DNA of 63,836 nt, counting the filler, from Acidimicrobiia bacterium (GTDB taxonomy: Bacteria; Actinomycetota; Acidimicrobiia; Spongiisociales; JAHEDJ01), in assembly GCA_029210695.1 (NCBI GenBank). It is 3 parts of 3 records of this genome, joined end to end, with 100 filler letters (N's around TTAATTAATTAA, not from the genome) between each part and the next. Parts side by side here need not be neighbours in the genome. Positions count along the whole stretch, not along the records: positions 1 to 22,723 come from JARGFH010000056.1; 2 more parts are not named here. One strand, written 5' to 3'. Position numbers and translations under genes: made by a program. Under the pieces are notes generated by a model, which worked only from the letters and a program-made list of their open reading frames with translations, was not told the origin of the DNA and did no database searches. Shown here piece after piece: positions 3,030-37,583 of this stretch. Each line of letters begins with the position of its first letter. The stretch's first letter is position 1.

Positions 3030-4427
3030 TCATCCACCCCCTGGAATCTCAGTGACGATCACGCTCCGATTGGCGTCGAGTTCGACCGGATCGACCTTGT
3101 CTTCAGTCAGGAAGATCGAAGCGTTTCCGTGGCAGGCATCGCACGAGGCGTTCTGCGGCGTCGAGCGCTGGATGTTGTGTGGAGTCGCGTACAGCCAGGT
3201 CGGCCGGGCATCGAACTCGGGCAACAGATCATCGCCGTAGTAGGAGAAGCTGTCCTGGTCGACCGGGACATGGCGGACCGTCACCCACGACCATGGGCGG
3301 TCGTCGGTCGGAGTCGGGTTCTTCCCGATGTAGAACAACATCTGCGACTCGTCCGTCTCGAAGTACGGCACGCCTTCCTCGGATTTCTGAACGTGACAGC
3401 TGTAACAGTTCTTGTATGCCACCGAATGGCAGACCTGACAGGAAAGGGCATCCAGATGCCATGCCGTGTGCTGGGCGTTGGCGCCTTCGAGGTCCGGGTG
3501 ACAATCGGTGCAGGCCGGATCTTGCGCTCCGTCGTATCGGAGCTCCTGCTCGGGGCCGACCCCGTGCATGTCATCGCCGGTGTGGCAGGTGAAGCACGCC
3601 ATGCCGCCCGGGTTGTAGTGGACGTCTGCCGGATACATCCCGCCGTCGTCCGTTTCGTTCTTGCCTTTGTACTCGTTCTCGATCCGGCTGCCGTGACAGC
3701 CCGTGCAGGTCAAGTTCATCGGCGGCGTCTCTTTGAACGAGTGACCGGCGAGCAGTCCACCTCCGGCACTGGTCGGCCGGCTCACATGGCATTGCCCGCA
3801 CGAGGCGTGACAGGATGCGCAGTGATTGGTGAAGGCCTCTTCCAGCCCGGGCGAGAGCTCGTCGCCGCCGCTGCGGGCCAGCAGCACGGTGTCGTAGCCG
3901 CCGAGCGTCGCATGCAGGCTGCCGACGTGATCGTCGGTGGTGTCTTCGTGGCAGGTGCCGCAGGTGGTGATCGGGTCGGGATCGACCGTTATTCCGGTGT
4001 GGGCCTCTTCCATGTCGGTTGCGCCCGGCACCCCGCCGTGACAGGTGGTGCACCCGACCTGCCCGTGCGTACTGGCCGGGAATTCCTCATCGCTTACGAA
4101 TACTTGCTCCCATGCCTCCAACTGAGGCACCGAGCCGCCTCAGCCCTCACCCGAGCTGAGCGATTCCGCGTCCACCGGTTCAACGGCGAGCGCCATCAAG
4201 GTTTCCTGGTTGGTGTGGCAATCGAGGCAGGCGGCGTCCGGGTCCATCGCTTCGGTGGTGGTCGGAACGACGGCCTGTGTCGTAGTGGTTGCTACCGAAT
4301 TCGGCGTTGTGTCGAGAGCCGCCACAGTGGTGTCTGGAGCTTCCGCCTCGTCACTGCTGCAACCGGCGAATACTCCTCCGGCCACGATCATCGCCCCGGC
4401 GGCCACCACCAGAGTCCAACGTTTCAT
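3030..4427 (-). CDS. Predicted selenocysteine-containing 11-heme cytochrome c lipoprotein (UGA readthrough at 4140-4142, residue 96)
   Basis: ORF 4140-4427 (AGGAG SD, lipobox FAGC, CLDCH) and ORF 3030-4130 (10 CxxCH, no signal peptide) are in frame across one TGA that is followed by a SECIS-like hairpin. The multiheme call is firm; Sec is inferred. Confidence 0.8.
4106..4139 (-). promoter_or_regulatory. Putative bacterial SECIS element
   Basis: UGA-GGCG-GCUC-GG-UGCCUC-AGUUG-GAGGCA-UGG-GAGC: 6-bp upper stem from +11, loop at +17 with G second, 4-bp lower stem. Confidence 0.7.
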
Positions 4428-4482
4428 ATCAACTCCTGGTGGGAGGCGCCGGGATCTCACCGACGCCTCCCGCTGGTCCGGT

Positions 4483-5589
4483 CTAGGGCAGTTCGTTGAT
4501 CACGGTTTCGGTCGGGTATCCCGGCGCACCCGTGTAGCGGCCGGTGGCGAGGACCGCATCGTCGTCGGTCCAGTCCATCATCCCGAACTTCATGTTGACG
4601 GAGTCGTAGCCGAGCAGCTTGAGGGCGGTTGCCGCCACCTGACCGGTGTGACCGGTGTAGCAGTAGACGATGATCTGCTCATCGGATGGGAGCATGGCCA
4701 GGCTGGCCGGATCGGCGATGGCTTTCCAACCGATGTTGTAGGCACCTTCCACATGACCGAGCGCATAGGCATCCGGCGCCCGGACGCTCAACACGAACGG
4801 ATTGTTCGCATCATCACCGTCTGAGAGGTTCTCAAACAAGGCTTCGGCGGAGGTCGTCGGACCCCAGTCGGCCAGGAAACTCTGGGCCGACGCAATCGCG
4901 ATATCAACCGCGGCCGTCTCGCCGGTGGTCAGCGTCGGCGGTTCATATTCAACCGTCAGTTCGTTGGCTTCAGTCTCGGTCGGGTATCCCGGCGCACCCG
5001 TGTAACGGGCGGTAGCCAGGATCGTGTCGTCATCGGTCCAGCCCATCATCCCGAACTTCAGGTTGGTGGCGTCGTACCCGAAGATCCGCAGCAGGGTCGC
5101 TGCCACCTGGCCGGTATGGCCGGTGTAGCAGTACACGACGATCGGCTGATCGGTCGGCAACTTGGCCAGGTTCGCCGGGTCGGCGATTTCTTTCCAGGGG
5201 ATGTTGTATGCGCCCTCGATGTGACCGAGCGCATAAGCATCCGGCGCCCGGACGCTCAGAATGAACGGGTCGTTCGATTCGTCGCCGTCCGAGAGGTTCT
5301 CGAACAGGGCTTCGGCCGAAATCGTCGGCGACCAGTCGGCAAGTGCGGCGGTGATGTGGGCGGCAAGAACCGCACTCTCATCGATCGCTTCCGTGGTCGT
5401 GGTGGTCGGGGCCACTGTGGTCGTGGTCATCTCGACCATGGTCGTGGCGACCATTGGAATGGTTGTTTCGGCGGCCGCGGCCGCGGTGGTTTCAGTGGTC
5501 TCCGTGGTGTCGTCCGACCCGCAGGCCGAGACAAAGAGACCCATCACGATGAACAAGATCAGCAAGTTCATTCTCTTGCTGGGTGACAT
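4483..5589 (-). CDS. Tandem rhodanese (sulfurtransferase) lipoprotein
   Basis: Lipobox VSAC, Thr-rich linker, two near-identical domains with GH(I/V)EGAYNI and CYTGHTG active-site loops. Confidence 0.9.
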   Translation of the reverse strand: MSPSKRMNLLILFIVMGLFVSACGSDDTTETTETTAAAAAETTIPMVATTMVEMTTTTVAPTTTTTEAIDESAVLAAHITAALADWSPTISAEALFENLSDGDESNDPFILSVRAPDAYALGHIEGAYNIPWKEIADPANLAKLPTDQPIVVYCYTGHTGQVAATLLRIFGYDATNLKFGMMGWTDDDTILATARYTGAPGYPTETEANELTVEYEPPTLTTGETAAVDIAIASAQSFLADWGPTTSAEALFENLSDGDDANNPFVLSVRAPDAYALGHVEGAYNIGWKAIADPASLAMLPSDEQIIVYCYTGHTGQVAATALKLLGYDSVNMKFGMMDWTDDDAVLATGRYTGAPGYPTETVINELP

Positions 5590-5815
5590 GGCACTCCTTT
5601 CAGAGTGATGTCAAGGTTCCTACCCCTTGCTGGCAATGTATCGCGTTCTGTCGCTTCTTGGACACGCCGTTGGCCCCATTCAAAAGTGCCGGCGGACCCG
5701 CCCAAGCGAAGGAAATACGTCGGTATAACACCTGCTTATGTAGGGTTTCTGACCGGTTGGGAAGAGATCGCCGGCCGGAATGGTTGCGCAGAACAGAAAA
5801 TGTGAAGGAGCAGCG

Positions 5816-6322
5816 ATGGATGCACAAAACCTCGGCTTGCTGATCTTGCGGGTGGCCGCCGGCGCGGTGATGATCGCCCACGGCCTCAACCACGGACGCA
5901 AGCTCGACAGCACCGCCGCCTGGTTCGAGTCCATAGGCTTCAGCCGCGCCAGGATGCAGGCGTTCCTCTCGGCGGCCGGCGAACTCGCCATCGGCGCCGG
6001 CCTCATAACAGGGGCTCTCACCACCTTCGCTGCCGCCGGTCTCGTCGCCACCATGGTGGTGGCGGGCGTTTCGAATCACCGCAAGGCGGGGTTCTTCGCC
6101 TTCAACCGTCCGATCGAGGGTTGGGAGTATGTGATGATGCTGGGCGTGGTCGGCTTGTCGCTCGCCACGATGGGGGGAGGCGAATGGTCGATCGACGGTG
6201 CAATCGGCCTCGACGTGTCCGGATGGCCCGGATTCATCATCGGTTTGGCCGGGGTCGGAGCAGGCATCACCCAGCTCGCCCTGTTCTGGAGTGCGCCTGC
6301 GGAAACCGAGATCGACGAATAG
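5816..6322 (+). CDS. DoxX family membrane protein
   Basis: LILRVAAGAVMIAHG, GWEY and GGGEWSIDG motifs; AAGGAG SD before ATG 5816. Confidence 0.88.
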   Translation: MDAQNLGLLILRVAAGAVMIAHGLNHGRKLDSTAAWFESIGFSRARMQAFLSAAGELAIGAGLITGALTTFAAAGLVATMVVAGVSNHRKAGFFAFNRPIEGWEYVMMLGVVGLSLATMGGGEWSIDGAIGLDVSGWPGFIIGLAGVGAGITQLALFWSAPAETEIDE

Positions 6323-11667: not shown

Positions 11668-11910
11668 TCAGCCGTCGAGGATCTTGGTGCGGATCCAATC
11701 CACGACGTCGACCCCCAGCGCCTGTAGGAGGCCCCAGATCACGACCAGTGCGGCGATGGCCAGCGCGGCGTTTCCGAGCAGTTCAGCAGTGCTCAACCCT
11801 TCCTCACGGCGAAGTTCGCCTACACCGCGCGGCAGGCGCTGCAGCAGCGCAACCATAAATACACGGACCAACTCCCACTCCTTTCCCTTCCTGGAGATCA
11901 TATCCATCAC
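11668..11910 (-). CDS. Flp-like major pilin (start may be ATG 11856)
   Basis: REEG/LSTAE prepilin site followed by a hydrophobic helix; short protein. Confidence 0.7.
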   Translation of the reverse strand: MMDMISRKGKEWELVRVFMVALLQRLPRGVGELRREEGLSTAELLGNAALAIAALVVIWGLLQALGVDVVDWIRTKILDG

Positions 11911-12869
11911 AGATTCCCGAAGACGATGGAAGGCAGAGGTGCGGCGACAAACAACAGCATCACCGGCGCCAGAATTGCGATCGTCGGGATCAACATCGCC
12001 GCACGTCTCTTCGTAGCCTGCCTCCGCATCGCTTCACGCCGACCCTCCCTGACATCTTCACTCAGGGCGAGAAGCGCCTCGCCGAGATCTGCGCCGCGCT
12101 CGTCGGCCGCAGCCAGAAGTGCGTATGTTCTGGCCGCATTGGGCTCGGGCGTCGTCGAAGCCACCCGACTGAACGCGTCTGAGGCGGACATCCCGCTCCG
12201 ATGGAGCCGCAACGCCTCCTCTAATTCCTCGACGACGGCCCCGGAGCCGCGTTGAGAGAGTTGCTGCACCGCCTGGATCACTCCTCCCCCGACCCGGACC
12301 CGCATCGCCAACAACTGATTGATCGTATATATCTCGATCCTCATCCGATCACGCCGTTCCTCGATTGCCCTGTCGACTGCCGCCCGCGACCGGGTGGCAC
12401 CCACGACGAATCCCAGAACGCCGAGAAGGAGTGCAAGTGACGCCCCATCCCCAACGAGCGCGCCCGCGACAACCCCAGCAACCGAAGCGGCAACGGTGGT
12501 CCCGAGCTGACGAACCCGATACTCCTGAAGGCGGTCATCCTCAGGCAGGGACAAGTACAACCCGGCCTGGCGGAGTTTCAGCGCCATCCCCTCATCACCT
12601 GTGGCTTCCACCAGCCTGCCGAACCGTACGGCAAGGGCCTCGACCATCGGGCCGAAGAGTCGGGCTACGACTCCCGCCCCACTGACAGGTCCCGGATCGG
12701 ACACACTGAGCACATCCGGACTCATTCCGAGGCTCGTCCGGCTGATCACGGTGTATGGGCGTACTCGCGGCGCCAGGCGACGGGTCGGCCGGACGAGGAG
12801 GGACGCGAACGCAGCCACCGCGATTCCCGACAGAACGGAGACCAGGAGGTCAACACCGCCCGAACTCAA
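11907..12869 (-). CDS. tadC: TadC-like pilus assembly platform protein (T2SSF domain)
   Basis: ERGADLGEALLALSEDVR motif, C-terminal TM helix, position in the cluster. Confidence 0.8.
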   Translation of the reverse strand: MSSGGVDLLVSVLSGIAVAAFASLLVRPTRRLAPRVRPYTVISRTSLGMSPDVLSVSDPGPVSGAGVVARLFGPMVEALAVRFGRLVEATGDEGMALKLRQAGLYLSLPEDDRLQEYRVRQLGTTVAASVAGVVAGALVGDGASLALLLGVLGFVVGATRSRAAVDRAIEERRDRMRIEIYTINQLLAMRVRVGGGVIQAVQQLSQRGSGAVVEELEEALRLHRSGMSASDAFSRVASTTPEPNAARTYALLAAADERGADLGEALLALSEDVREGRREAMRRQATKRRAAMLIPTIAILAPVMLLFVAAPLPSIVFGNL

Positions 12870-15042: not shown

Positions 15043-16238
15043 ACGTTGACGCTTTCCGCTGCCTGCATCTCGTCGAGTCGTCGCGTGAGTGCCATCACCG
15101 CCTTCGAGTAGGGGCCGATCGGTACTGCTTCCCCCGCCCACCCCGCATCGGACACCCGCCGGTCCTCAGGGACGAACGACAGCGTGGCTGGTTGATAGCT
15201 CCTGGTGAACTCAATAGCGACTTCTCGCTGCTGGAAGCTCGATCTCCCGATGCGGTTGAAGACGCAGTGGACCGTCGCTTGTTCCACCAGCGAAGCAGCA
15301 TCGGCCAGCCACTCGATCAAGCGCGCCACCCCGACTGGCGTTGGCTGCCCGACCACCACCACCTGATCGGCGGCAGAGACAAGAGCACGGGCAAGTCCGT
15401 TTCGATCGGGTCCCCCGTGATACGACAGGTCTTCGATGCGAGCACCAATGTCGACGACTACCCGGTCGCGACCATGTGCCAACTCCCTTACGACCTCGAC
15501 AACGTCACTCGAGCGAAGTTCGATCCAATCCCGAGGGTTGGGAAGCCCGATGAGCACCTCTACCCCGACGTGACGGGGAAAGGCGAGCGATGCATGAAGG
15601 CCGTCTGAGCGATGATTGAGGGCATCGACTGCCGACCTCAGATTCGGATGGAGCGCAATACCCAGCCGCTGGGCAATCGAAGGTGCCAGGTCATCACAGT
15701 CGACCAGAGCAACTGAACCACCCCGGTATCGCCACCCGGCGGCCAAGGCAATGGCAATCTCGGTGCGGCCGACACCTCCCGATGGGCCGCCCACAACAGT
15801 TACTTTCCCGCCCTCCGCTCCGAGATCCGATGGCCCGATCGATCCGGAGATCGGCTCATCCGACCCTGCAACACTCAGACGTTCAGGACCGACGAAGATT
15901 CGACCGACTGCCTTCAGGAACTCTTCGGGCGGGGCTTGAGCTTCGACCACCGCATCGACGCCGAGCGACCGGAGTCGCTCCTCACCCTCACGAAACTCGA
16001 CCCGATCGAAGACGCCCAGCACCAGCTTGCCGTTGGCCTGCGCCTGCTGCACCAACCGGCGAGATAGGTACGACGTGAGGTCGTCGATGACCAACACGTC
16101 AAACTGCTCGGACAGGACGTCCTCCGGCCGCATAACCCGTGTGCGGACGCGGGCGCCGCCGTGGTCGGCAACGAACCTGTGGAGTCGCTCACCCCACTCG
16201 CGAGGTGACACCGCAATACCGAGCTCAGCTTCCCGCAT
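15039..16238 (-). CDS. CpaE/TadZ-like MinD-type protein with a receiver-like N-terminus
   Basis: Deviant Walker A GPSGGVGRT, VALVDCD, VVVDIG; lies between cpaB and tadA. Confidence 0.78.
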   Translation of the reverse strand: MREAELGIAVSPREWGERLHRFVADHGGARVRTRVMRPEDVLSEQFDVLVIDDLTSYLSRRLVQQAQANGKLVLGVFDRVEFREGEERLRSLGVDAVVEAQAPPEEFLKAVGRIFVGPERLSVAGSDEPISGSIGPSDLGAEGGKVTVVGGPSGGVGRTEIAIALAAGWRYRGGSVALVDCDDLAPSIAQRLGIALHPNLRSAVDALNHRSDGLHASLAFPRHVGVEVLIGLPNPRDWIELRSSDVVEVVRELAHGRDRVVVDIGARIEDLSYHGGPDRNGLARALVSAADQVVVVGQPTPVGVARLIEWLADAASLVEQATVHCVFNRIGRSSFQQREVAIEFTRSYQPATLSFVPEDRRVSDAGWAGEAVPIGPYSKAVMALTRRLDEMQAAESVNV

Positions 16239-16941
16239 CGGGTTCTCCAGAAGATACTGACTCGGGTGCAGCCGGTTGCGGGAACACCAACTGCGTTGGC
16301 TCGCTCGCACCGGTCGACCGGATGATCTCAATCGATCCTCCATCGAGCGCGCTGGCGATCCGCAGAGCCGTGAGCGAGTCGACGGCAATAGTGACGTAGA
16401 ACTGGCCGCTCGATCCAAGTCCGGCGCCGGATGACGGAGCAACATCAAGGACGGGTGCGGCCAGGACGATGTATTCAGCCAGGCCGTCGGCAACGCCGAT
16501 AACGTCGACAACGTCGTTTTCGTTGATCATTCCACCGGTGGCATGAACCCGGTCCACCGGGATACTCATAGCCCTTTGTTCGGACGGCGCAGCAGCCTCC
16601 ACGAAATCGGAGACGGAGACGAGTTCTCCCTGCGCGACGGCACGGGCAACAATCCGGTCCTCCAGGTCGAGCAGGTACTCCGCCGGGACGAGGGTGGATA
16701 GGACATTCGGATCCACCTGGACTTCGACCATCCGAAATGCGTCGGCGCTGACCTTCGTGCCGCGCACGAGGTCCGCAACTGCCACCGCGACAAGGGAGGT
16801 CTCATCCCTCGCCCGCAACAGGGCGAAGTTGACGAGCACGGCCAGCAGGCCGGCGGTGACCATGATGAGATGCCCCATCGACAGTCGACCGGTCAACGAC
16901 GGGCGGGTCCGGTGGGCTGGTTTCGACTGCTCAACCGTCAT
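16225..16941 (-). CDS. CpaB/RcpC-like SAF-domain protein
   Basis: TM helix, VAVAVADLVRGT SAF motif, RAMSIPV..GG.I...D.VDVI. Confidence 0.82.
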   Translation of the reverse strand: MTVEQSKPAHRTRPSLTGRLSMGHLIMVTAGLLAVLVNFALLRARDETSLVAVAVADLVRGTKVSADAFRMVEVQVDPNVLSTLVPAEYLLDLEDRIVARAVAQGELVSVSDFVEAAAPSEQRAMSIPVDRVHATGGMINENDVVDVIGVADGLAEYIVLAAPVLDVAPSSGAGLGSSGQFYVTIAVDSLTALRIASALDGGSIEIIRSTGASEPTQLVFPQPAAPESVSSGEPDAGS

Positions 16942-18473: not shown

Positions 18474-20009
18474 TCACGGCTCTCCGATCTCAGGAAGCTT
18501 CTGCTCGAGGATACCCCCGAGGATGCGCCTGGTCTGCGGGGGCACCTTCTCAAACGAGACCTCGAGGCCGGCGCCCTCCGCCTGTTCGGCAACGCTCTTG
18601 AGAACTAGCGCCCCGGTGTAGTCGATCCGGCCCAGGCTGCCGAGATCGAACACGAGAGCACTCGCATCCTGGTGCTCGGCGAGCAACTGGAGCAGGGCCT
18701 CGTTGAGCGGCGGCGCCGACCCGAAGAAGAGCACGCCGCGCGGAGTTAGCCGCAGGGTCTGTCCGTCGAAGCTCGAACCGACGCCGACCTTGATCTCTCT
18801 CCACACGTGGATGAGGATTCCCAGCCCAATGCCGGTGATGACGGCGAACTCGACCCGCGGACTGAGGATGAGCGTCAAGGAGAAGGTCGTCCACAACACG
18901 GCGGTTTGCGGCTTCGAGTGCTTCCACATCGTCCACAGCGGCGACAGCCGGATGAGTTGGGCAACGGCCGAGATCACGATGGCGCCGAGGATGGCCCGGG
19001 GCAGGGGCGACAGAACTCCAGCGACGGGAAGGAACGCCAGCACGACGAGCCCGGAGATCGCTCCGACCCACCGGGTCTTCCCACCGGCCAAGCGGGCTAC
19101 GGACGAACGAGCAAACGACCCCCCAACGGGAAACCCACCGGAGATCCCCGAAGCGAGGTTGGCGACACCCTGGCTGACGAACTCCCGATCCGGGCTCCAG
19201 GTCTGGCGTTCCTGAGCCGCAAAAGTACGTGAAATAGCGGCTGCCTCGGCGAACCCGACCAGGGCAATAACCACCCCACTGACCAACAGCGATGGCAGCG
19301 AGCCCCAGGGCAAGTCGAGCGAGAAGGGCGGCAGTCCGGCCGGCACATCTCCCACGATGAGTCCGTCGTAATCGGTCACCACGCTGTAGACAATCCCCAG
19401 GATCACGGCGACCAGCACCCCTGGAAACACGCGGTGGAGTTTGCGCCCGCCGAGCACCAGTACGGCGGTCACCAGTGACAACCCGACGGCCGCCGGCTCC
19501 CATTCGGATATGTGAATCAGCGCCCACCACGCCTTCTCGAGGATCTGGCCGTCCGGCGCCACCACCCCGACCGCGGTCGGGACCTGCGAAGACAGAATGA
19601 GGATGGCGGCCGCCGACGTGAACCCGATCAGCACCGGCTGGGACATGAAGTACGCCAGGAACCCACCGCGGAAAGCGCCGATGAGCGTCCTCACCACTCC
19701 GACGACAAGGGCCAACAAGGCGGCCAGGGCCACGTACTCGGTGGTACCGGGCTCGGCACCCAAGCCCTGCAATGCTCCAAAGGTCAACAAGGCCGTCAAC
19801 GCCACCGGGCCTGTCTGGAGATACGGTGAGGAAACGAAGAAAGCAGCGACCAGCGAGGGCAGGGCGGCCGCGTACAAGCCAACATAGACGGGGACCCCGG
19901 CGATTTCGGCGTTGGCCAGCGACTGTGGAATGAGCACGAAGGCGACACTCAATCCGGCGATTACATCCGCAGGCCGCGGCCGGCCTGCCCGTGCGATCAA
20001 GGACTGCAC
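18474..20009 (-). CDS. SulP family anion transporter with STAS domain
   Basis: DVIAGLSVAFVLIPQSLA, GGSFARS, C-terminal LFFGSA...IDYTG. Confidence 0.92.
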   Translation of the reverse strand: MQSLIARAGRPRPADVIAGLSVAFVLIPQSLANAEIAGVPVYVGLYAAALPSLVAAFFVSSPYLQTGPVALTALLTFGALQGLGAEPGTTEYVALAALLALVVGVVRTLIGAFRGGFLAYFMSQPVLIGFTSAAAILILSSQVPTAVGVVAPDGQILEKAWWALIHISEWEPAAVGLSLVTAVLVLGGRKLHRVFPGVLVAVILGIVYSVVTDYDGLIVGDVPAGLPPFSLDLPWGSLPSLLVSGVVIALVGFAEAAAISRTFAAQERQTWSPDREFVSQGVANLASGISGGFPVGGSFARSSVARLAGGKTRWVGAISGLVVLAFLPVAGVLSPLPRAILGAIVISAVAQLIRLSPLWTMWKHSKPQTAVLWTTFSLTLILSPRVEFAVITGIGLGILIHVWREIKVGVGSSFDGQTLRLTPRGVLFFGSAPPLNEALLQLLAEHQDASALVFDLGSLGRIDYTGALVLKSVAEQAEGAGLEVSFEKVPPQTRRILGGILEQKLPEIGEP

Positions 20010-20021
20010 GGCGACCGGCCC

Positions 20022-20369
20022 CTACACCAGCACGAAGACGACGGCGGCCGCCGTCATGAGCAACGCCAGGGCGGTGATCACGATCGGCCCGGTGGAGGCG
20101 GTCTGAAACATGCCCTCCTCGAGTTGCACGCGGACGCGCTCGTAGCGAATCGTCGCGTAGATGAGCGAGGCGGCACCCACACCGACCATCGTCAAGCCCG
20201 CGATCTCGGCCTCAACCCCCTGGGCCTCAACCAGCTTTCCAACCAGGACACCAAGACCGATGATGCCGAGGGCGGTACGCACCCAGGCCAGGTAGGTCCG
20301 CTCATTAGCAAGATGATCACGGGCGCGACTGCCGCGGTTGGGGCGAATCGGATTCCGGGACGTGCTCAC
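20022..20369 (-). CDS. DUF202/YidH family membrane protein
   Basis: RDHLANERTYLAWVRT motif, 3 TM helices. Confidence 0.88.
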   Translation of the reverse strand: MSTSRNPIRPNRGSRARDHLANERTYLAWVRTALGIIGLGVLVGKLVEAQGVEAEIAGLTMVGVGAASLIYATIRYERVRVQLEEGMFQTASTGPIVITALALLMTAAAVVFVLV

Positions 20370-20403
20370 GGCTGAGAGGGTACTCCGCAGTCCGGCGGGG
20401 TCC

Positions 20404-21531
20404 TCACTTGGACAGGGCACACTCGTTGCGGCCGACTTCGAGTTCCTTGGCCTTTTCAGCGTCCGGCATCAGCACTCCGAGATTCACCTTGCGGATGTCT
20501 GCGTAGATGGCGGGCGGCTCACCGAGATGCGATACGACGAAGTCGACGAACTCGGCCTCATCGGCGATCGACACCACCGGATCGTTTTTCACCAGATCAC
20601 CCAGCGAGCGCCGAAGAGTGCCGTCTTCCAGCGACTCGGTCCGGCTCGTGTAGTGCGCCGGGCAGACCTCCAGTGCAGGATCGAGAGGCGATAGCTTCAC
20701 GTGAATCGTGTTGAACAGATCTCTCGCCCAGGGCTCGGTCTCGCCGCCGAGGTCGGGGCGACCGACGCCTGTGACGAACACCGCGTCGCCGGTCATCAGA
20801 TAACGGCCGTGCACCTCGAGCGACGTCGAACCGGGCGTGTGACCGGGGGTCGCCACCGAGCGGACGATCATCTCCATCTCGCCGAACGTGAACACCTGCC
20901 CATCTTCGAGGGGGGTGTATTCAAAGACAGCCTCTTCAGCATCGCCCGGCGAAATGCGATATGTCGCGCCCGTCTGTTCGGCCATAGCCACACCGATGGA
21001 GATGTGATCGGCGTGCAGATGAGTGTCGAACAAGTCGGTGATCGTCGCGTCGTACTGGTCGGCGAGCGCCAGGTAGCGCTCGGCATCGGCAGCCGGGTCG
21101 ATGACGGCCATCGTATGGCCGCGGGCGCCCACGGCATACGAAAGACACGCCTTGGCCATCCGATCGAGCTGAACGACAAAGTGGGTCCCGTCGTCGAAGA
21201 GCGTCCTCGGGATCAGCGTGTTGGCCCACAGGTCCATACCGCCTTCGAGGTTCATGACGTTCGCCCTCTCCATCATCTCGACAACCATGCCGGACGAACC
21301 GCCGTGGGCGCAGATGGCGATCACGTCCTGGTCCTCCGGAAGCGTGGCGGCGATGCCTTCGATGTCGCCGAGGGCCGTCCAGTAGGGGATGTTGACGGTA
21401 TCGAGGGCGAGCTTGCCCTCGATCCGCCAGCGCTCGAACTGATCGCCGGCGCGCAAGTCGAGAATGTAGGGGAGCTTCTCGGCGTCTTCGATCCTCCTGG
21501 CGAGGTCATCGGTGGTAATCGAGCCGGGCAT
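20404..21531 (-). CDS. Rhodanese plus MBL-fold hydrolase (YrkH/persulfide dioxygenase-like)
   Basis: N-terminal rhodanese CAHGGSS, then THLHADH, TPGHTPGS, GRPDL and C-terminal EVGRNECA. Confidence 0.87.
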   Translation of the reverse strand: MPGSITTDDLARRIEDAEKLPYILDLRAGDQFERWRIEGKLALDTVNIPYWTALGDIEGIAATLPEDQDVIAICAHGGSSGMVVEMMERANVMNLEGGMDLWANTLIPRTLFDDGTHFVVQLDRMAKACLSYAVGARGHTMAVIDPAADAERYLALADQYDATITDLFDTHLHADHISIGVAMAEQTGATYRISPGDAEEAVFEYTPLEDGQVFTFGEMEMIVRSVATPGHTPGSTSLEVHGRYLMTGDAVFVTGVGRPDLGGETEPWARDLFNTIHVKLSPLDPALEVCPAHYTSRTESLEDGTLRRSLGDLVKNDPVVSIADEAEFVDFVVSHLGEPPAIYADIRKVNLGVLMPDAEKAKELEVGRNECALSK

Positions 21532-21567
21532 CTGGCAATCCCTCCTCACAGGCGCATCCGCGGCCTG

Positions 21568-21587
21568 ACATGCGAAACGGCGCATGT
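21568..21587. promoter_or_regulatory. Putative repressor operator ACATGCG-N6-CGCATGT
   Basis: Perfect 7-bp inverted repeat next to a minus-strand TAAGAT -10; the same core occurs at 22070-22085. Confidence 0.55.
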
Positions 21588-21644
21588 ATCTTATGAATGA
21601 CCTCGGGACCCGGCAAGGGGTTCTTCCCCGGCCACGGGCGGCGA

Positions 21645-21977
21645 CTACGAGTTGGCCGCCTGCGGCTCTTCGGCATCCACCTGCATTTGCTCTGCCATCA
21701 CCTCGCGCAACAGGTCGATGGCCTGGGTGATCTTGTCCGAAGTCAACGAGTAGAACACTCGCTGCGCGTCACGACGGGCCAGCACCAGGCCGCGGTCGCG
21801 CAGCACTGCCAGATGTTGAGACACGTTCGCCTGCGGGAGTTGCAGCTCTTCGCAGAGTTCCATGACCGGACGCTCGCCATCGCGCAGCGCATTGATGATC
21901 AGCAGCCGTTTGGGATCGGCAATCCCTTTGCAGACACCTGCGTGTAGGGCGAGTAGCTCATCGGCGACGGAGTGCAT
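21645..21977 (-). CDS. ArsR/SmtB family transcriptional regulator
   Basis: KGIADPKRLLII and PQANVSQHLAVLRDRGLV winged HTH. Confidence 0.92.
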   Translation of the reverse strand: MHSVADELLALHAGVCKGIADPKRLLIINALRDGERPVMELCEELQLPQANVSQHLAVLRDRGLVLARRDAQRVFYSLTSDKITQAIDLLREVMAEQMQVDAEEPQAANS

Positions 21978-22041
21978 AGAGGCAGAACCTAGCCGATGAC
22001 ATGCTCAAGGTAGAACGTCCGGAGAAAAACCCCAGAATCGG

Positions 22042-22085
22042 TTGACGCACCGATACCGGCCGTACCAGGATGCGTCGAGGCGCAT
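22042..22085 (+). promoter_or_regulatory. Putative promoter (TTGACG-N18-CAGGAT) with overlapping ATGCG-N6-CGCAT operator
   Basis: Upstream of the DsrE-like gene; operator core identical to 21570-21585. Confidence 0.5.
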
Positions 22086-22123
22086 ATAGGCGCCCGGGGA
22101 GACACCAACACGAAGGAGGGACG

Positions 22124-22651
22124 ATGACGGCTACCGATCATCAGATCGAACCCGCCCCAGAGGAGACCGCGCCTGAGAAGGAGAAGATGGTCATCATTGC
22201 CGCCTCGGGCGACCTCGACAAAGCCTGGCCGGTGCTGATCCTGGCCACCACCGGCGCCGCCTACGGGATGGATGTAACGGTGTTCTTCACGTTCTGGGGG
22301 CTCGGCATCCTCAAGAAAGCAGACGCCGGCCTCACCGGAGACGACTGGCGGCAGAAGATGCTGTCGATGTTCCACAACAGTTCTGCATCCGGACTCGGCT
22401 TGTCCAAGTTGCACTTCGCCGGAATGGGTCCTGCCATGATGCGCGGCCTCGCCGAAGACCACAACGTTGCTTCCGTCCAGGAGTTGCTGGATATGGCGAT
22501 CGACCTGGGCGTCAACCTCTGGCCGTGCCAGATGACCATGGACCTCATGGGCCTCAAAGATGAACATCTCATCGATGGTCTGTCCGCCCCCGTCGGGGCA
22601 GGTTCGGCAATCAGCCTGATGAAGCAGGCGACAATCAGTCTGTTCATCTAG
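22124..22651 (+). CDS. DsrE/DsrF/DrsH-like (YrkE-type) sulfur carrier protein
   Basis: SGDLDKA, VFFTFWGL, PCQMTMDLMG and SLFI terminus; AAGGAGG SD. Confidence 0.9.
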   Translation: MTATDHQIEPAPEETAPEKEKMVIIAASGDLDKAWPVLILATTGAAYGMDVTVFFTFWGLGILKKADAGLTGDDWRQKMLSMFHNSSASGLGLSKLHFAGMGPAMMRGLAEDHNVASVQELLDMAIDLGVNLWPCQMTMDLMGLKDEHLIDGLSAPVGAGSAISLMKQATISLFI

Positions 22652-22955: not shown

Positions 22956-23321
22956 GTGAGCTCGTATTTTCAGGACTACATCACCGTGGGCTCATTCGCG
23001 GCGCTCGGCGTGGTTCTCGTCATCGTGATGCTGGGGGTGGCCGCTCTCCTCCGCCCCTCCAACCCCTCACCCGCCAAGCTGAAGACCTACGAATGCGGCG
23101 TCGACCCCGTCGGCGAAGGATGGCACCAGTCCTACGTCCGCTACTACGTCTTCGGCCTGCTGTTTGTCATCTTCGATGTAGAAGCCGTGTTCATCTTCCC
23201 GTGGGCGATAAAGCTCGAGGACCTCGGCATGTTCGGTCTCGTCGAGATGCTGATCTTCATCTGGATCCTTCTGATGGGATTGATCTTCGCCATCCGCAAG
23301 GGAGTCCTTCGGTGGGAATAA
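22956..23321 (+). CDS. nuoA: NADH-quinone oxidoreductase subunit A
   Basis: [28 protein letters not shown]. Confidence 0.95.
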
Positions 23322-23809
23322 TCGAGAAGTTCGGGATGCCGAAGCCGGCAACCTTCCTGCTGAACTGGGGCCGCAAGTACTCACTTTGGCTCTTCCAGTT
23401 TGGACTGGCCTGCTGCTCCGTTGAGATGCTGGCCGCAGCCGGGCCCCGCTACGACATGATGCGCTTTGGGATCATCCCGATGCCGGCTTCGCCCCGCCAG
23501 GCCGACCTCATGGTCGTGGCCGGCACATTGACCGACAAGATGGCCCCTGCGGTCAAGCGCATCTACGACCAGATGCCCGATCCCAAATACGTGATCTCGA
23601 TGGGATCGTGTTCGAACAGTGGCGGCCCCTACTGGGACTCCTACTCCGTGACGAAGGGGGTGGATCAGATCATCCCGGTCGATGTATACGTCCCCGGTTG
23701 TCCTCCCCGCCCCGAAGCGCTCATGGAAGCCATCGTGTTGTTGCAGAAGAAGATCCAGAACGAAAACCTCCAGGACAAATGGACACATCGTGACGAACAG
23801 CCGGCTTGA
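23312..23809 (+). CDS. nuoB: NADH-quinone oxidoreductase subunit B
   Basis: [24 protein letters not shown]. Confidence 0.96.
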
Positions 23810-24377
23810 GTCCATCGAGGATTTCGCCGCCTCGGTAGCCGAGGCGGTCGGAGCAACCTCCCACTCCTCAGAGCTCGGTACGGTCAAGGTCAGGGTCGAG
23901 CGTGAACGCTGGGTCGAGGCTGTGACCGCCGCCCGCGACATCGCCCTCCTGCCCTTGTTCTCCTGGCTGTCGGCCGTTGACTGGATGAACGACGTCGCAG
24001 TTGGTGATCCCCCGGCCGAAGAGGTGGAGGAGCGCTACGAGGTCATGTGCGCCGTATCGAACGTCTCCGACGGACAAATCGTGGTGCTGAGCACCGACCT
24101 GCCCAAGGACGATCCCTCGATCGATTCGGTCGCAGATGTCTATCCGGGCGCCAACTGGCACGAGCGTGAGGCGGCCGAGATGTTCGAGATCGATTTCGTC
24201 GGTCACCCGAACCTGATCAAGCTCTATCTCACCTCCGACTTCGTCGGTCATCCTCTCAAGAAGTCCTACCCGTTGATCAGCCGCGAAGTGAAGCCGTGGC
24301 CGGGGACGGTGGACGTCGAAGACATGCCGGAGTCGGCCGCTGCGGATGCCCCGAGCTTCGAGAACCCGGACGCATGA
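23790..24377 (+). CDS. nuoC: NADH-quinone oxidoreductase subunit C
   Basis: [17 protein letters not shown]...GHPLKK. Confidence 0.93.
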
Positions 24378-25564
24378 TGCTTGATCCCAGCGTTCTCCAC
24401 CATCTCTCCGAGGCGGCTGTGGCGATCGAACTCGAAACGCCGGACATGACGCTCAACATCGGTCCGCAGCACCCGTCGACCCACGGTGTGCTCCGCCTCG
24501 TGGCCAAGGTCGACGGTGAGCAGGTTTTCGACGTTCAGCCCGTCATCGGCTACATGCATCGGGGATACGAGAAGATAAGCGAGGTCCGCACGTATCCGCA
24601 GATCATCACTTTGATCAACAGGATCGAGTGGGTATCCGGATACGCCAACGAAATCCCCTTCCTGGTCGCCGTCGAGCGGATCATGGGGCTCGAAGTGCCG
24701 GAGCGAGCCCAGTACATCCGCCTGATCCTCACCGAGCTGACCAGGTTGTCGAGCCACCTCATGTTCATGGGCTCATATCCGCTCGAACTCGGTGCCTCCA
24801 CCCCGCTCATGTTTGCCCTCCGGGAGCGGGAGCGGGTACTCGATCTCATCGAAGGCGTCACCGGTGGACGGTTCCACCCGAACTTCAACCGGATCGGAGG
24901 CGTCAAGCCGGCCGCCGGTGCGGGGCCCAGTCAGAAGAAGCTCATCCAGGACCTGCCCAAAGGCTTTCTCGAGGACACCCGCGACGCCATGGATCGGGTC
25001 CTGTCGACCTCCGATGAGCTCGAAGACCTCATCGCCGGAAATGAGGTGTTGCTGGCCAGGACCAAGGGCGTCGGGATTCTCCCCCCCGAGGTGGCGATGG
25101 CCTACGGCGTGACCGGCCCGAACCTGCGCGCCTCCGGTGTCGACTTCGATCTCCGCAAGAAGTCCGACTACTTGCCTTACGACCAGCTCGATTTCAAAAC
25201 GGCCGTCACCGAAACGGGGGACTGCTGGGATCGCTGGTGGGTCCGGCTCGTCGAGATTCGCGAATCGGCCAGGATGATCAAGCAGGCGGTCGATCAGATC
25301 CCCTCGGGACCGCTCCAGGCCAAGGTTCCCCGCGTCATCAAGGTGCCGAAGGGCGAGACCTACGTGCGCGCCGAGAACCCGAAGGGGGAGATGGGCTATC
25401 ACGTCATCTCCGAGGGCGGTCAGGTTCCCTACCGGGTGAAGATCCGCTCGGCCTCGTTCAACAACATCTCGATTCTCCCGCACATCCTCGAGAGAATCCT
25501 GATCCCCGACATCGTGGCGATCATGGGAAGCCTGGACTTCGTCCTAGGGGATGTGGACAGATGA
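24374..25564 (+). CDS. nuoD: NADH-quinone oxidoreductase subunit D
   Basis: NIGPQHPSTHGVLRL, GYMHRG, ENPKGE, C-terminal DVDR. Confidence 0.96.
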   Translation: MMLDPSVLHHLSEAAVAIELETPDMTLNIGPQHPSTHGVLRLVAKVDGEQVFDVQPVIGYMHRGYEKISEVRTYPQIITLINRIEWVSGYANEIPFLVAVERIMGLEVPERAQYIRLILTELTRLSSHLMFMGSYPLELGASTPLMFALRERERVLDLIEGVTGGRFHPNFNRIGGVKPAAGAGPSQKKLIQDLPKGFLEDTRDAMDRVLSTSDELEDLIAGNEVLLARTKGVGILPPEVAMAYGVTGPNLRASGVDFDLRKKSDYLPYDQLDFKTAVTETGDCWDRWWVRLVEIRESARMIKQAVDQIPSGPLQAKVPRVIKVPKGETYVRAENPKGEMGYHVISEGGQVPYRVKIRSASFNNISILPHILERILIPDIVAIMGSLDFVLGDVDR

Positions 25565-25565
25565 C

Positions 25566-25624
25566 GCGGCCCTCTCGCTTCGCTCGTGGGCCGCTGGAGT
25601 TTCGGGCTCGGGCCCGAAACTCCA
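25566..25624. repeat. Two hairpins between nuoD and nuoH
   Basis: GCGGCCC...GGGCCGC around CGCTTCGCTCG, and TGGAGTTTCGGGC-TCGG-GCCCGAAACTCCA (13-bp stem). Confidence 0.65.
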
Positions 25625-25651
25625 ACGTGACACCCGTAAGGGGGTCACGCC

Positions 25652-26656
25652 GTGTCTGACCTCCTCTCCAACTTCTGGATCCTCCTGGCGCTCAAGCTGG
25701 CCGCCATCGGCGCCCTGGTTCCCGTGAGCGCGCTCATCATCGGTACGGCCGAGTTGAAGATCTCGGCACACATGCAGTCCCGCATCGGGCCGTATTTCGC
25801 CGGTGGCCGCTTCGGGTGGGCGCAGCTCATCGCAGACGGCATCAAGTTCTTTCAGAAGGAAGACATCATTCCCGAAGATGCCGACCGGCAGGTGTTCCGG
25901 TGGGCCCCGGCCCTGGTGTTGTTGTCGACGGTTGCTCTGTTTGTCGTCATTCCCTTCTCGCCCACCTTGATCGTCCGCGACCTCGACCTGGGAGTTTTCT
26001 ACGTGCTGGCCATTTCGTCGATCAGCACGATCGGCGTGCTGATGGCCGGATGGTCATCCGCCAACAAGTACTCGCTCATGGGCGGGCTGCGGGCCGCCGG
26101 GCAGCTCATCGCCTACGAGTTGCCGCTGGTGCTGGCAGTCGTCGGCGTCGTCATTCAGGCGGGAACGATGTCGATGGTGGGAATCGTCGAAGCACAAGCC
26201 TCGTTCGAGGTGTTCGGTACGATCACGGTGCCCTACGTGGCCGTCCAGTTTGTCGGATTCCTGGTATTCATGACCGCCGCCCTGGCGGAACTGAGCCGCA
26301 TTCCCTTCGACCTCCCGGTGGCCGAGTCGGAACTGGTGATGGGGTTCGTCACCGAGTACACCGGCTTCCGGTTCTTGTTCTTCTTCCTCGGTGAGTACGC
26401 CAGCATGTTCTCGATGTCCGCCATCGCCGCCACCTTGTTCCTCGGCGGGTATCACTTCCCCGGCCTCGACCCGGCCATCTGGGGCCCGGTGGTTCTGGTC
26501 GTGAAGATCTTCTTCCTGGCCTTCTTGATGATCTGGTTCCGCTGGACGTTCCCACGACTGCGCGAGGACCAACTCCAGACTTTCGCCTGGAAGTGGTTGA
26601 TTCCGGTGTCGCTCGCCAACATCGCAGTGACCGGCGTCTTCAAGGTGGTGTTCTGA
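25652..26656 (+). CDS. nuoH: NADH-quinone oxidoreductase subunit H
   Basis: MQSRIGP, ADGIKFFQKE, RIPFDLPVAESELV. Confidence 0.95.
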   Translation: MSDLLSNFWILLALKLAAIGALVPVSALIIGTAELKISAHMQSRIGPYFAGGRFGWAQLIADGIKFFQKEDIIPEDADRQVFRWAPALVLLSTVALFVVIPFSPTLIVRDLDLGVFYVLAISSISTIGVLMAGWSSANKYSLMGGLRAAGQLIAYELPLVLAVVGVVIQAGTMSMVGIVEAQASFEVFGTITVPYVAVQFVGFLVFMTAALAELSRIPFDLPVAESELVMGFVTEYTGFRFLFFFLGEYASMFSMSAIAATLFLGGYHFPGLDPAIWGPVVLVVKIFFLAFLMIWFRWTFPRLREDQLQTFAWKWLIPVSLANIAVTGVFKVVF

Positions 26657-27129
26657 TGCGCCTCCGCCTTCCCAACTTCTTCGGCTCGGGATTGCTGACC
26701 GGATTGTGGGTGACGCTCAAGACCCTGTTCTCCAAGCCCGTCACGGTGAACTACCCGGTCGTGAAAGAAACGCCCGTGCCGCGTGCCCGCGGCGTGATCG
26801 CCCTCGATCAGGACGCATGCACGGTCTGCATGCTGTGCGCCCGGCAGTGCCCGGACTGGTGCATCTACATCGAAGGGCACAAGGAAGAGCAGCCCCCCTC
26901 CCAGCCGGGCGGACGGGTCAAGAAACGCGCAACGCTCGACCGGTTCGACATCGACTACGCCCTCTGCATGTACTGCGGCATCTGCGTCGAGGTCTGTCCA
27001 TTCGACGCCCTGTTCTGGACTCCGGAGTACGAGTACTCGGAGCACAAGATGGGCGCAATGATGCACGACAAGGACCGTCTCCAGGATTGGCTGAAGACGG
27101 TGCCGGAAGCCCCGGGACTGGAATCATGA
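26656..27129 (+). CDS. nuoI: NADH-quinone oxidoreductase subunit I
   Basis: Two CxxCxxCxxxCP ferredoxin motifs. Confidence 0.95.
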   Translation: MRLRLPNFFGSGLLTGLWVTLKTLFSKPVTVNYPVVKETPVPRARGVIALDQDACTVCMLCARQCPDWCIYIEGHKEEQPPSQPGGRVKKRATLDRFDIDYALCMYCGICVEVCPFDALFWTPEYEYSEHKMGAMMHDKDRLQDWLKTVPEAPGLES

Positions 27130-27132
27130 GCA

Positions 27133-27200
27133 GGCAATTGGCAATTGGCAATTGGCTCCGCGCTCCGCTGAAACCAGGGGGCCAATTGCCAATTGCCCAA
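27133..27200. repeat. Inverted heptamer arrays (GGCAATT)3 ... (GCCAATT)n
   Basis: ggcaattggcaattggcaattggc ... gccaattgccaattgcc between nuoI and nuoJ. Confidence 0.75.
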
Positions 27201-27219
27201 TTCCAAATGGGACGAACAC

Positions 27220-27759: not shown

Positions 27760-27787
27760 ATCGGTTCGCTGCGCTCACCGAGTGGCG

Positions 27788-27825
27788 AGAGACTCGCGAC
27801 TCGCGACTTGCGACTCGCGACACGA
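27788..27825 (+). repeat. Heptamer tandem repeat (GACTCGC)n
   Basis: gactcgcgactcgcgacttgcgactcgcgac between nuoJ and nuoK. Confidence 0.75.
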
Positions 27826-27841
27826 GCCCGGAGGGCTCGCA

Positions 27842-28147: not shown

Positions 28148-28148
28148 C

Positions 28149-30182: not shown

Positions 30183-30197
30183 GAGGAGGAAGAGTCA

Positions 30198-31775: not shown

Positions 31776-31778
31776 CCG

Positions 31779-37358: not shown

Positions 37359-37583
37359 ATCTACTCCTCCGAGCGCCGATAAGGCCTCCTCCGCAGTGTC
37401 ACCCACTTTCAGCGACATGTTCCGGGCGGCTGTGTTATTTTCCCTCCTACGTTCCTCCAGATGAGGAGCCATGGCTGCGGTACGGGGAGGCACCGTTGAC
37501 TTCGCGCATGATGAACGACGGTCTTCAGTGCATCCCTTTTGCCGCGCCGGATTTCGAACGAGCGCACGATATGGGAGGCAGTT

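Follow-up and report, generated by a model that had tools for sequence, protein, structure and literature searches.

When an in-frame UGA codon cuts a multiheme cytochrome gene in two, does it mark the end of one gene ahead of another, or is it a codon for selenocysteine (Sec) inside a single gene? The question is raised by a stretch of DNA from the genome of an Acidimicrobiia bacterium (GCA_029210695.1). The whole stretch, referred to here as the window, is 63.8 kb long, and the feature of interest occupies positions 3030..4427 on its minus strand. On that strand a reading frame runs from an ATG at 4427-4425 to a TGA stop at 3032-3030, and its sole interruption is a TGA at 4142-4140, which is codon 96. 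A listing of the open reading frames (ORFs) of the window splits the frame as a gene caller would, into 4140..4460 (106 aa) and 3030..4130 (366 aa, with a GTG start). The fused product has 465 residues with selenocysteine (U) at position 96, and eleven CxxCH heme motifs, one before the TGA and ten after it. The evidence presented below leads us to conclude that UGA codon 96 is very probably decoded as Sec, directed by a downstream bacterial selenocysteine insertion sequence (SECIS) hairpin, and that the gene is likely to encode one exported 11-heme selenoprotein belonging to a new Sec/Cys family.

The features of the gene, all on the minus strand, are the following.

3030..4427: complete predicted selenoprotein gene, 465 codons plus TGA stop, with 11 CxxCH and Sec as codon 96 (translation with TGA=U)
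4433..4437: Shine-Dalgarno-like AGGAG, 5 nt 5' of the ATG (sequence inspection)
4359..4427: predicted signal peptide ending in the lipobox-like VFAGC (Cys23); no other export signal is seen in the protein (translation)
4215..4229: heme motif 1, CLDCH, residues 67-71, 5' of the UGA (translation)
4140..4142: in-frame UGA (U96) in SSGEG-U-GG (translation; TGA in 77/78 loci)
4113..4129: SECIS-like hairpin, with 5' arm UGCCUC at 4129-4124, loop AGUUG at 4123-4119 and 3' arm GAGGCA at 4118-4113
3033..4139: C-terminal 369 residues with heme motifs 2-11, present in databases as a separate signal-less 'protein' (translation and database matches)

Bacterial lipoproteins have a signal peptide ending in a lipobox with an invariant Cys. 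The fused protein begins MKRWTLVVAAGAMIVAGGVFAGC, in which MKRW and a hydrophobic stretch lead to VFAGC23; FAGC is lipobox-like, with its Cys at residue 23. Read by eye in this way, the protein is a candidate lipoprotein. It has no Lys or Arg between residue 3 and Arg185. After the signal peptide comes a Thr/Ala-rich linker, then CLDCH, and then AVEPVDAESLSSGEG up to the TGA. Directly after the TGA, with the frame kept, the protein resumes as GGSVPQLEAWEQVF, the junction reading ...SLSSGEG-TGA-GGSVPQLEAWE.... Pfam matches the fused protein to Cytochrome_C7 (PF14522, 57.4 bits against a cut-off of 24.8) and to PF14537 (29.3 bits against 25). An earlier account of this locus, here called the original prediction, had described an ORF from ATG 4427 with a Shine-Dalgarno sequence, a lipobox and one CxxCH followed by an in-frame TGA, and a protein of 465 aa with U96 in a Gly-rich GEG-U-GG loop between hemes 1 and 2. 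Translation reproduces the first description exactly and agrees with the second. Judged from its sequence, the region 4427-3030 is almost certainly a single gene for a 465-residue exported protein, predicted to be a lipoprotein, carrying eleven c-type hemes.

The UGA column and the hairpin that follows it

A scan of one genome per species matched at least 600 stretches, at least 589 of which encode a relative, and the best 80 loci were kept. The metagenome-assembled genomes (MAGs) from which these come are labelled Acidimicrobiia, Actinomycetota, Anaerolineae, Caldilineaceae, Thermoflexus and Chloroflexota. Among them is L001 (contig JAHEDK010000014.1), which is 94% identical. A contig edge cuts off two loci (L054 and L070) before the Sec column, leaving 78 for the column statistics. 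The column holds TGA in 77 of the 78 and TGG in the remaining one (L048), and the frame is intact across it in all of them; chance would not give such a pattern. The motif around the TGA is G-x-G-U-GG throughout, and is mostly EGEG-U-GG. In its wider context, C-x-x-C-H is followed by about 22 mostly acidic residues and then by (L)SEGEG-U-GG-x-[VL]-P-[PQ]-[LV]-E-[AG]-W-E-K-V. Among 40 aligned N-terminal segments the invariant positions (40/40) are C12, C15, H16, G38, G40, the Sec column (41), G42 and G43, together with P46, W51, V54, H66 and the next heme motif (C71, C74, H75). The original prediction had anticipated homologs with TGA at this column and conservation on both sides, and this is what the TGA count and the invariant G-x-G and GG flanks amount to.

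More distant relatives were collected with an 86-residue profile around Sec, run against 1.84 billion cluster representatives, which gave 275 matches at E<=0.001, 150 of them listed. Among these 150, 47 are short ORFs whose last residue, profile position 40, directly precedes Sec; 46 are C-terminal fragments whose first residues fall at profile position 45-48, that is 4-7 residues after Sec; 54 are continuous through the column; and three are ambiguous (P0177, P0180 and P0199). The residue that the continuous proteins carry at the Sec column (profile position 41) was taken from the hmmsearch alignment. It is Cys in 27, Trp in five, Arg, Ala and Leu in three each, His, Ser, Pro, Val and Tyr in two each, and Gln, Met and Lys in one each. 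P0130 (476 aa), for example, reads PGEG-C-GG-TVPEMEAWEKAF at this point, and a large continuous subgroup has the motif GGG-C-GG-E-x-PH-x-EPYDRVY. In these alignments, Cys in continuous relatives at the UGA column is the classical Sec/Cys relationship. The expectation that homologs might have Cys is borne out by 27 of the 54 continuous distant proteins; the other 27 carry neither Sec nor Cys.

The closest relatives found in a search with P0130 are mostly pieces of 355-375 residues (75-81% coverage), some of them with NCBI names in Candidatus Eisenbacteria, Phycisphaerae, KSB1, Myxococcota and Actinobacteria (names only). Their fragment lengths are consistent with Sec forms in further phyla.

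Some of the relatives show features worth recording. Trp stands exactly at the Sec column in the five continuous proteins counted above, and one residue off it in others. P0199 (183 aa), one of the ambiguous matches, consists of at least four tandem copies of a unit of about 30 residues with ...RRYGCGGRLPPLRMW..., which resembles the Sec/Cys loop of the family. A C-terminal extension is found in P0037, P0045, P0050, P0083 and P0100 (677-770 aa) and in L017, L020, L038, L077 and L080; it comprises a Pro/Glu/Thr-rich linker, more CxxCH motifs and a final membrane helix, bringing these proteins to about 16 or more hemes.

A further line of evidence is the hairpin, which the original prediction did not include. 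It starts 10 nt after the UGA, and the distance from the UGA to the apical loop is 16 nt in the window and 16-17 nt in relatives. In most Chloroflexota it reads UGCCUCC-GUU-GGAGGCA, and it can be formed in every sequence. According to the accessible part of a 2026 review (PMC13188914), bacterial SECIS elements have an apical loop of 3-9 nt, an upper stem of 4-16 bp and 16-37 nt between UGA and loop, with a G within the first two loop positions in the pattern N-G-[G/U]-N-N. With a stem of 6-7 bp, a loop of AGUUG or (C)GUU(G) and a spacing of 16-17 nt, the hairpin falls within all three limits as given there (PMC13188914).

In an ungapped alignment of 79 sequences, 94.2% of the cells of the 7-pair helix are paired; sliding the 3' partner by 1-3 columns lowers this to 44-58%. 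Compensatory double changes are seen at three of the seven pairs: a G-C pair has become C-G in 14 sequences, a U-A pair is G-C in L009, and three sequences have A-U in place of C-G. Two of these events alter the protein (EAW to EGW and EAW to AAW) and nevertheless keep the pair. The covariation score of the helix was reached by none of 500 column shuffles. Since the hairpin overlies conserved amino acids, the choice among synonymous codons was also examined. Pro at Sec+5 is CCT in 78/79 sequences, whereas in the rest of these genes CCT accounts for 8.9% of the Pro codons; on the same comparison Ala at Sec+9 is GCA in 56/62 (11% elsewhere), Leu at Sec+7 is TTG in 55/58 (13.7%) and Glu at Sec+8 is GAG in 78/78 (61%). 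On this comparison, codon choice in the hairpin arms is dictated by the stem.

Taken together, the TGA in 77/78 loci, the Cys in 27/54 continuous relatives and the SECIS-like hairpin with its covariation bear out the central proposal of the original prediction, that this UGA is decoded as Sec. As seen in the alignments, the family is marked by heme 1, an acidic linker of about 22 residues, the loop G-x-G-[U/C]-GG-x-[VL]-P-[PQ]-[LV]-E-A-W, and ten further hemes.

A number of observations weigh against this reading. None of selA, selB, selD and tRNA-Sec is present in the window, and ARAGORN found no tRNA-Sec in the 80 loci, only a tRNA-Arg (L040) and a tRNA-Val (L074). It should be said that Sec machinery genes are not expected beside selenoprotein genes. 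The 91-nt hairpin region of the window folds only modestly better than its shuffles (z = -1.74, with 9/200 folding as well), and an Rfam scan of the window gave no family at gathering score. Because the hairpin lies over conserved residues, three of its seven pairs never vary and the sequences are related, the hairpin signal is partly protein conservation and shared ancestry. The case for a SECIS element is carried by the comparative signal, not by the window's own fold. Potential start codons (GTG or TTG) occur at Sec+4 in 55/79 sequences and at Sec+7 in 72/79. The TGG of L048, and the 27/54 continuous distant relatives with neither Sec nor Cys (five with Trp), imply that the Sec residue is dispensable in some lineages. 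Finally, there is no structural support. AlphaFold2, run on a 46-row alignment (23 recoded rows and 23 database fragments), gave a heme-free model with a mean predicted local distance difference test (pLDDT) score of 63.3, a predicted TM-score (pTM) of 0.56 and values below 50 in the Sec loop, and Foldseek found no match to this model in the PDB at E<=0.001. The model being poor and heme-free, no structural conclusion is drawn on the position of Sec relative to a heme.

Readthrough, two genes or error

A single polypeptide could also be produced without selenium, if the UGA were read by a near-cognate tRNA (Trp, Cys or Arg) in programmed readthrough. This would suit the TGG codon at the column in L048, the Trp in five and Arg in three of the distant relatives, and the lack of visible Sec machinery in the window and of tRNA-Sec in the 80 loci. 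It would leave unexplained why the hairpin agrees with the bacterial SECIS consensus in spacing, in stem length and in its G-U loop, and why Cys, the classical partner of Sec, is the commonest residue in the continuous relatives (27/54). Moreover, an inefficient stop codon kept in 77/78 lineages is sensible only if no sense codon can substitute for it. We regard readthrough of this kind as very unlikely.

Database annotation, on the other hand, treats the locus as two genes. A search with the fused protein gave 2,061 proteins at E<=0.001 among 8,000 candidates scored. Each of the best 120 covers at most 79% of the query; 70 of them start at Sec+4, 41 at Sec+7 and nine further downstream, and none crosses the column. 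Since none does, all of them carry the footprint of a stop codon, and the claim that gene callers would split this gene is borne out. If the calls were correct, a 95-residue monoheme lipoprotein would end at the TGA and a 10-heme protein would be made by reinitiation at GTG 4130 or TTG 4121, with GAGG as ribosome-binding site. The original prediction had itself cautioned that a weak Shine-Dalgarno sequence might serve GTG 4130, and this is a real feature of the sequence, GAGG being located 7 nt 5' of that GTG. All database gene calls use starts of the Sec+4 or Sec+7 type, and the frequency of GTG and TTG at these positions, given above, is also in keeping with two genes. However, GAGG is fully accounted for by the codons for Glu and Gly in the conserved EGEG motif.

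Export, too, speaks against two genes. An export segment was defined as a 15-residue window with a mean Kyte-Doolittle hydropathy of at least 1.8, in place of a signal-peptide predictor, and the comparison covers the 73 loci with a complete upstream ORF. Such a segment is present in 73/73 of the parts upstream of Sec, and in 0/73 within the first 60 residues after Sec; the 10-CxxCH ORF therefore has no export signal of its own, as had been claimed. Covalent attachment of c-type heme to CxxCH happens outside the cytoplasm. Because of this, and because the downstream part lacks an export signal, a cytoplasmic 10-heme product is implausible. The frame is, in addition, strictly kept across the stop in 77/78 loci, continuous Cys-bearing homologs exist, and the hairpin has compensatory changes and forced rare codons. 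Reinitiation of a separate gene is accordingly extremely unlikely.

An assembly or sequencing error, or a pseudogene, as the source of the TGA has in its favour only the presence of a stop codon and is a negligible prospect: different studies and taxa contribute 77 independent assemblies with this codon, in a frame otherwise undamaged and with the protein sequence strongly conserved on both flanks. Two objections that the original prediction had raised against itself, an assembly error and a loss of frame between the two parts in relatives, are excluded by these assemblies and by the 78/78 loci in frame. Genome-wide reassignment of TGA was considered as well and rejected: TGA is the commonest stop of the window, ending 26/46 of its Pfam-supported genes, including the selenoprotein gene itself.

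Gene neighbourhood and proposed function

We now take codon 96 as Sec within a single gene, and turn to what the protein might do. Two neighbouring genes are relevant.

4483..5589, minus strand: upstream gene, a lipoprotein with two rhodanese domains (Pfam Rhodanese, E=8.4e-29, two stretches)
5780..6322, plus strand: divergent gene for a DoxX-family membrane protein (Pfam DoxX, E=5.6e-16)

The rhodanese lipoprotein has a signal peptide with VSACG, and a CYTGHTG active-site loop in each domain. It is the probable sulfur-carrier partner of the selenoprotein. A rhodanese homolog is present in 66/80 loci. Where at least 2 kb of sequence is available upstream of the Sec codon (58 loci), the rhodanese is linked on the same strand in 55, with a position no more than 3 kb away upstream in 48 and downstream in seven; three (L029, L032 and L048) lack it. 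L048 is also the sole locus with TGG (Trp) at the Sec column (L048:6097-6099), yet it keeps NrfC- and NrfD-like neighbours; Sec and its carrier may here have been lost together.

Rhodanese domains are also met in other arrangements. In P0133 (455 aa) one is fused to the N-terminus of a family member, which has Trp at the Sec column (GEG-W-AG). In an Acidimicrobiia locus (L060:2463-5780, plus strand) they form the C-terminal end of a 1,106-residue ORF, whose long N-terminal part has no strong Pfam match. Although Pfam finds no rhodanese domain in them, many of the 10-heme fragments bear the JGI name 'thiosulfate/3-mercaptopyruvate sulfurtransferase', which they probably owe to rhodanese genes that are fused or adjacent.

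Clustering of the ORFs around the gene places a 4Fe-4S protein in 29 loci and an NrfD-type membrane protein in 16, the loci being titled almost all Chloroflexota. The 4Fe-4S neighbour scores best to DsrO (180.7 bits, cut-off 200), then to TtrB and NrfC. A cytochrome b561-multiheme fusion gene is found in 10 loci. In the window no gene of these three kinds adjoins the pair. The DoxX protein is a weak link, with a homolog in only 2/80 loci. DoxD/DoxA is a thiosulfate:quinone oxidoreductase, and mycobacterial DoxX partners with the rhodanese SseA. The DoxX protein is a possible quinone-side partner in this lineage only.

Because a rhodanese carrier, a Sec-bearing cytochrome and quinol-side NrfCD-type modules occur together, we propose that the protein is a respiratory sulfane-sulfur enzyme. 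More specifically, by analogy, it may be a quinol-linked sulfane-sulfur or polysulfide oxidoreductase that acts with the rhodanese on the outer face of the membrane, a proposal to which we give about an even chance. In this scheme the rhodanese lipoprotein would bind sulfane sulfur, as polysulfide, thiosulfate or persulfide, on its active-site Cys and hand it to Sec96, which would attack the rhodanese persulfide or polysulfide to give an Se-S bond. This bond would be cleaved reductively, or formed oxidatively, with electrons passing along the 11-heme chain. In many Chloroflexota the chain would connect to the quinone pool through the adjacent NrfC/DsrO-like and NrfD-like subunits. Sec96 would either stay free, as a nucleophile next to a heme, or serve as a heme's sixth ligand. 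Two points count against the proposal: it draws on gene neighbourhood and analogy only, and the gene pair of the window itself has no adjoining NrfCD-like genes.

For the second of these roles of Sec96 the sequences give hints only. In 21 diverse full-length relatives all eleven heme motifs are kept, and only nine His outside these motifs are conserved in at least 18/21 (H121, H143, H172, H229, H270, H288, H320, H324 and H417); H386 is present in 14/21 and H202 in 5/21. With eleven motifs and nine such His, at least one heme has no conserved distal His. At the Sec column, 33/54 continuous relatives have a residue that could ligate heme (Cys 27, His 2, Tyr 2, Met 1, Lys 1). There is no second conserved Cys that could take the role of Cys239 in MccSep, the multiheme selenoenzyme discussed in the next section, and this too was counted as a hint of ligation by Sec. 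It is a tentative idea, and one that we think unlikely, that the G-x-G-[U/C]-G-G loop provides the sixth (distal) ligand of one c-type heme, making a natural His/selenolate heme at the centre of a widespread quinol-linked sulfane-sulfur enzyme. If true, it would be the selenium counterpart of the His/Cys hemes in TsdA, SoxAX, DsrJ and MccSep, and the rhodanese, the 11-heme selenoprotein and the NrfCD-like proteins would form a previously unrecognised respiratory enzyme in Chloroflexota, Acidimicrobiia and other uncultured phyla.

The protein might also be a selenoprotein with a different job, such as an extracellular electron conduit to metal oxides or electrodes, or a reductase that detoxifies selenite or tellurite. 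In a conduit, Sec would ligate a heme for structural reasons or to tune its redox properties, and would not be a nucleophile for sulfur transfer. Such jobs would suit a protein with eleven hemes that a predicted lipid anchor fixes to the surface of a monoderm-type cell. Also in their favour are the extra multiheme domains and C-terminal membrane helix of some relatives (P0037, P0045, P0050, P0083 and P0100), the fact that MccSep reduces selenite as well (PMC13510729), and weak NCBIfam matches to the ExtM, ExtN and ExtO models of a 'selenite/tellurite reduction operon'. These matches are far below cut-off, however, at about 30 bits against 200-800. The rhodanese, linked in 55/58 loci and fused in P0133, speaks for carrier chemistry of sulfane sulfur or selenium, not for mineral reduction, and the window has more genes for handling sulfur (the rhodanese-metallo-beta-lactamase fusion, DsrE_2 and SulP, listed below). 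We consider these other jobs, taken jointly, unlikely.

The sulfur-handling genes just mentioned form a cluster at 18474-22651, about 16 kb from the selenoprotein gene. These and other features of the window are as follows.

18474-20009, minus strand: SulP sulfate permease with STAS domain
20022-20420, minus strand: DUF202
20404-21585, minus strand: rhodanese and metallo-beta-lactamase fusion, persulfide dioxygenase-like
21645-21977, minus strand: ArsR-type regulator
22070-22651, plus strand: DsrE_2 protein
22956-33266, plus strand: nuo operon (NADH:quinone oxidoreductase), subunits A, C, D, H, I, J, K, L, M and N (Pfam)
37539-39599, plus strand: multicopper oxidase of 686 residues
11907-16941, minus strand: Flp/Tad-type pilus genes (T2SSF at 11907-12869, RcpC/CpaB at 16225-16941)
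62609-63829, plus strand: IS110-family transposase (DEDD_Tnp_IS110 and Transposase_20), at the very end of the window

Wider meaning and comparison with known systems

Before August 2026, multiheme cytochrome selenoproteins were nearly a curiosity. In that month MccSep was identified as the polysulfide reductase that had long been sought in sulfur-respiring Desulfobacterota (PMC13510729). The present proteins would add a second family of similar size, unrelated to MccSep, with at least 589 loci in species-representative genomes and about 2,000 database fragments. Its hosts are mostly uncultured (Anaerolineae, Caldilineaceae, Thermoflexus and Acidimicrobiia and, by name only, Eisenbacteria, Phycisphaerae, KSB1 and Myxococcota). 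The database copies seen are mis-annotated as signal-less 10-heme fragments. As a result, metabolic reconstructions from MAGs would miss an exported, probably respiratory, enzyme of sulfur or selenium and would undercount selenium dependence. No description of the family was found in the literature on selenocysteine or selenoprotein multiheme and c-type cytochromes, subscription papers and supplements lying outside the scope of the search.

MccSep (ExtKL, GSU2937-2936) of Geobacter sulfurreducens is a selenoenzyme of the multiheme cytochrome c type and a polysulfide reductase (PMC13510729). It has five hemes; Sec325 belongs to a C-terminal Ig-like domain, where it stands in a D-G-U-P loop, and Cys239 is a ligand of the active-site heme. 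MccSep is found mainly in Desulfobacterota and Nitrospirota (PMC13510729). Its gene cluster includes a rhodanese-like lipoprotein, ExtH (PMC13510729, and the accessible part of PMC5877670).

The two proteins have much in common. Each is an exported multiheme c-type cytochrome with one Sec from an in-frame UGA that splits the annotated gene, a SECIS-like hairpin (putative here) follows the UGA directly, both Sec-type and Cys-type relatives occur, and a rhodanese lipoprotein gene belongs to the cluster (ExtH) or is adjacent, as here. There are also differences. MccSep has five hemes and the new protein eleven; Sec325 is in the D-G-U-P loop of a C-terminal domain, whereas U96 is in a G-x-G-U-G-G loop between hemes 1 and 2; and the taxa are Desulfobacterota and Nitrospirota in one case, Acidimicrobiia and Chloroflexota in the other, with fragments named Eisenbacteria, Phycisphaerae, KSB1 and Myxococcota. 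MccSep also needs its heme-ligating Cys239, while no Cys outside CxxCH, the Sec column aside, is invariant in the 46 aligned sequences or in the 21 diverse full-length relatives of the new family. For want of such a Cys, the selenium chemistry must differ from that of MccSep, which makes the new family a good test case for Sec-heme cooperation. The ExtKL model (NF040886) is absent from the NCBIfam matches of the fused protein at E<=0.1.

Membership of MccSep/ExtKL was therefore rejected, on the heme count, on the position and motif of Sec, on the lack of a conserved heme-ligating Cys and on the lack of a match to NF040886. The comparison with ExtKL made in the original prediction holds as an analogy, and as no more than that. 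By its sequence and architecture the family is a new one among multiheme cytochrome c selenoproteins, unrelated to MccSep. By that same analogy, the new protein probably works in a similar manner, Sec attacking a chalcogen substrate and the hemes supplying electrons.

In the accessible part of the review already cited, the cytochrome-type selenoproteins are ExtKL, a GSU2204-family CXXCH protein and the TIGR04315 octaheme family only (PMC13188914). The last two resemble the new protein in being c-type cytochrome selenoproteins of anaerobic respiration, as described there (PMC13188914). By model score, however, it belongs to neither: TIGR04315, a tetrathionate-reductase-family octaheme cytochrome, scores 20.8 bits against a cut-off of 375, and the GSU2204 model has no match to the fused protein. 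Other NCBIfam candidates were set aside in the same way, namely ExtN, ExtO and ExtM (about 26-30 bits, where the cut-offs are 200-800), the GSU2203 decaheme model (23.1 bits against 325), and octaheme_Shew, NrfB and UshA-like matches, all sub-threshold and none a family assignment. Searching the PDB by sequence and profile gave 28pb_A 'Cytochrome c' as best match (E=2.1e-5), with hydroxylamine oxidoreductases and octaheme nitrite reductase at about 1e-3. These alignments cover CxxCH spacing only and are generic heme matches, which leave the Sec loop uninformed.

Further systems of sulfur metabolism can be compared. Sud of Wolinella succinogenes is a rhodanese-like periplasmic protein that carries polysulfide to Psr, a quinol-linked polysulfide reductase whose FeS subunit is PsrB and whose NrfD-type subunit is PsrC. 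An extracytoplasmic rhodanese carrier, a catalytic subunit and quinol modules of FeS and NrfD type would likewise be combined here, but the catalytic subunit of Psr is a molybdopterin enzyme and not an 11-heme selenoprotein. DsrJ, of the DsrMKJOP complex, works with DsrO (FeS) and DsrP (NrfD-like), and the Chloroflexota loci similarly pair a DsrO-like FeS protein with an NrfD-like protein. TsdA and SoxAX (cited in PMC13510729), like DsrJ, have His/Cys-ligated hemes; they are diheme or multiheme c-type cytochromes whose S-S bond chemistry is done by a chalcogen side chain at or on a heme. Homology of TsdA, SoxAX or DsrJ with the new family is not in evidence, and ligation of a heme by Sec96 is hypothetical.

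The remaining comparison is with a native Sec-ligated cytochrome P450, described in a preprint of which the accessible part was used (PMC11703216). It too is a natural hemoprotein whose database gene is truncated at the Sec UGA (PMC11703216). Its heme is b-type with Sec as the proximal ligand, whereas the hemes here are c-type and ligation by Sec is a hypothesis only. Given that report, as far as the accessible part of the preprint goes, ligation of a heme by Sec would be new for c-type hemes and for sulfur enzymology only (PMC11703216).

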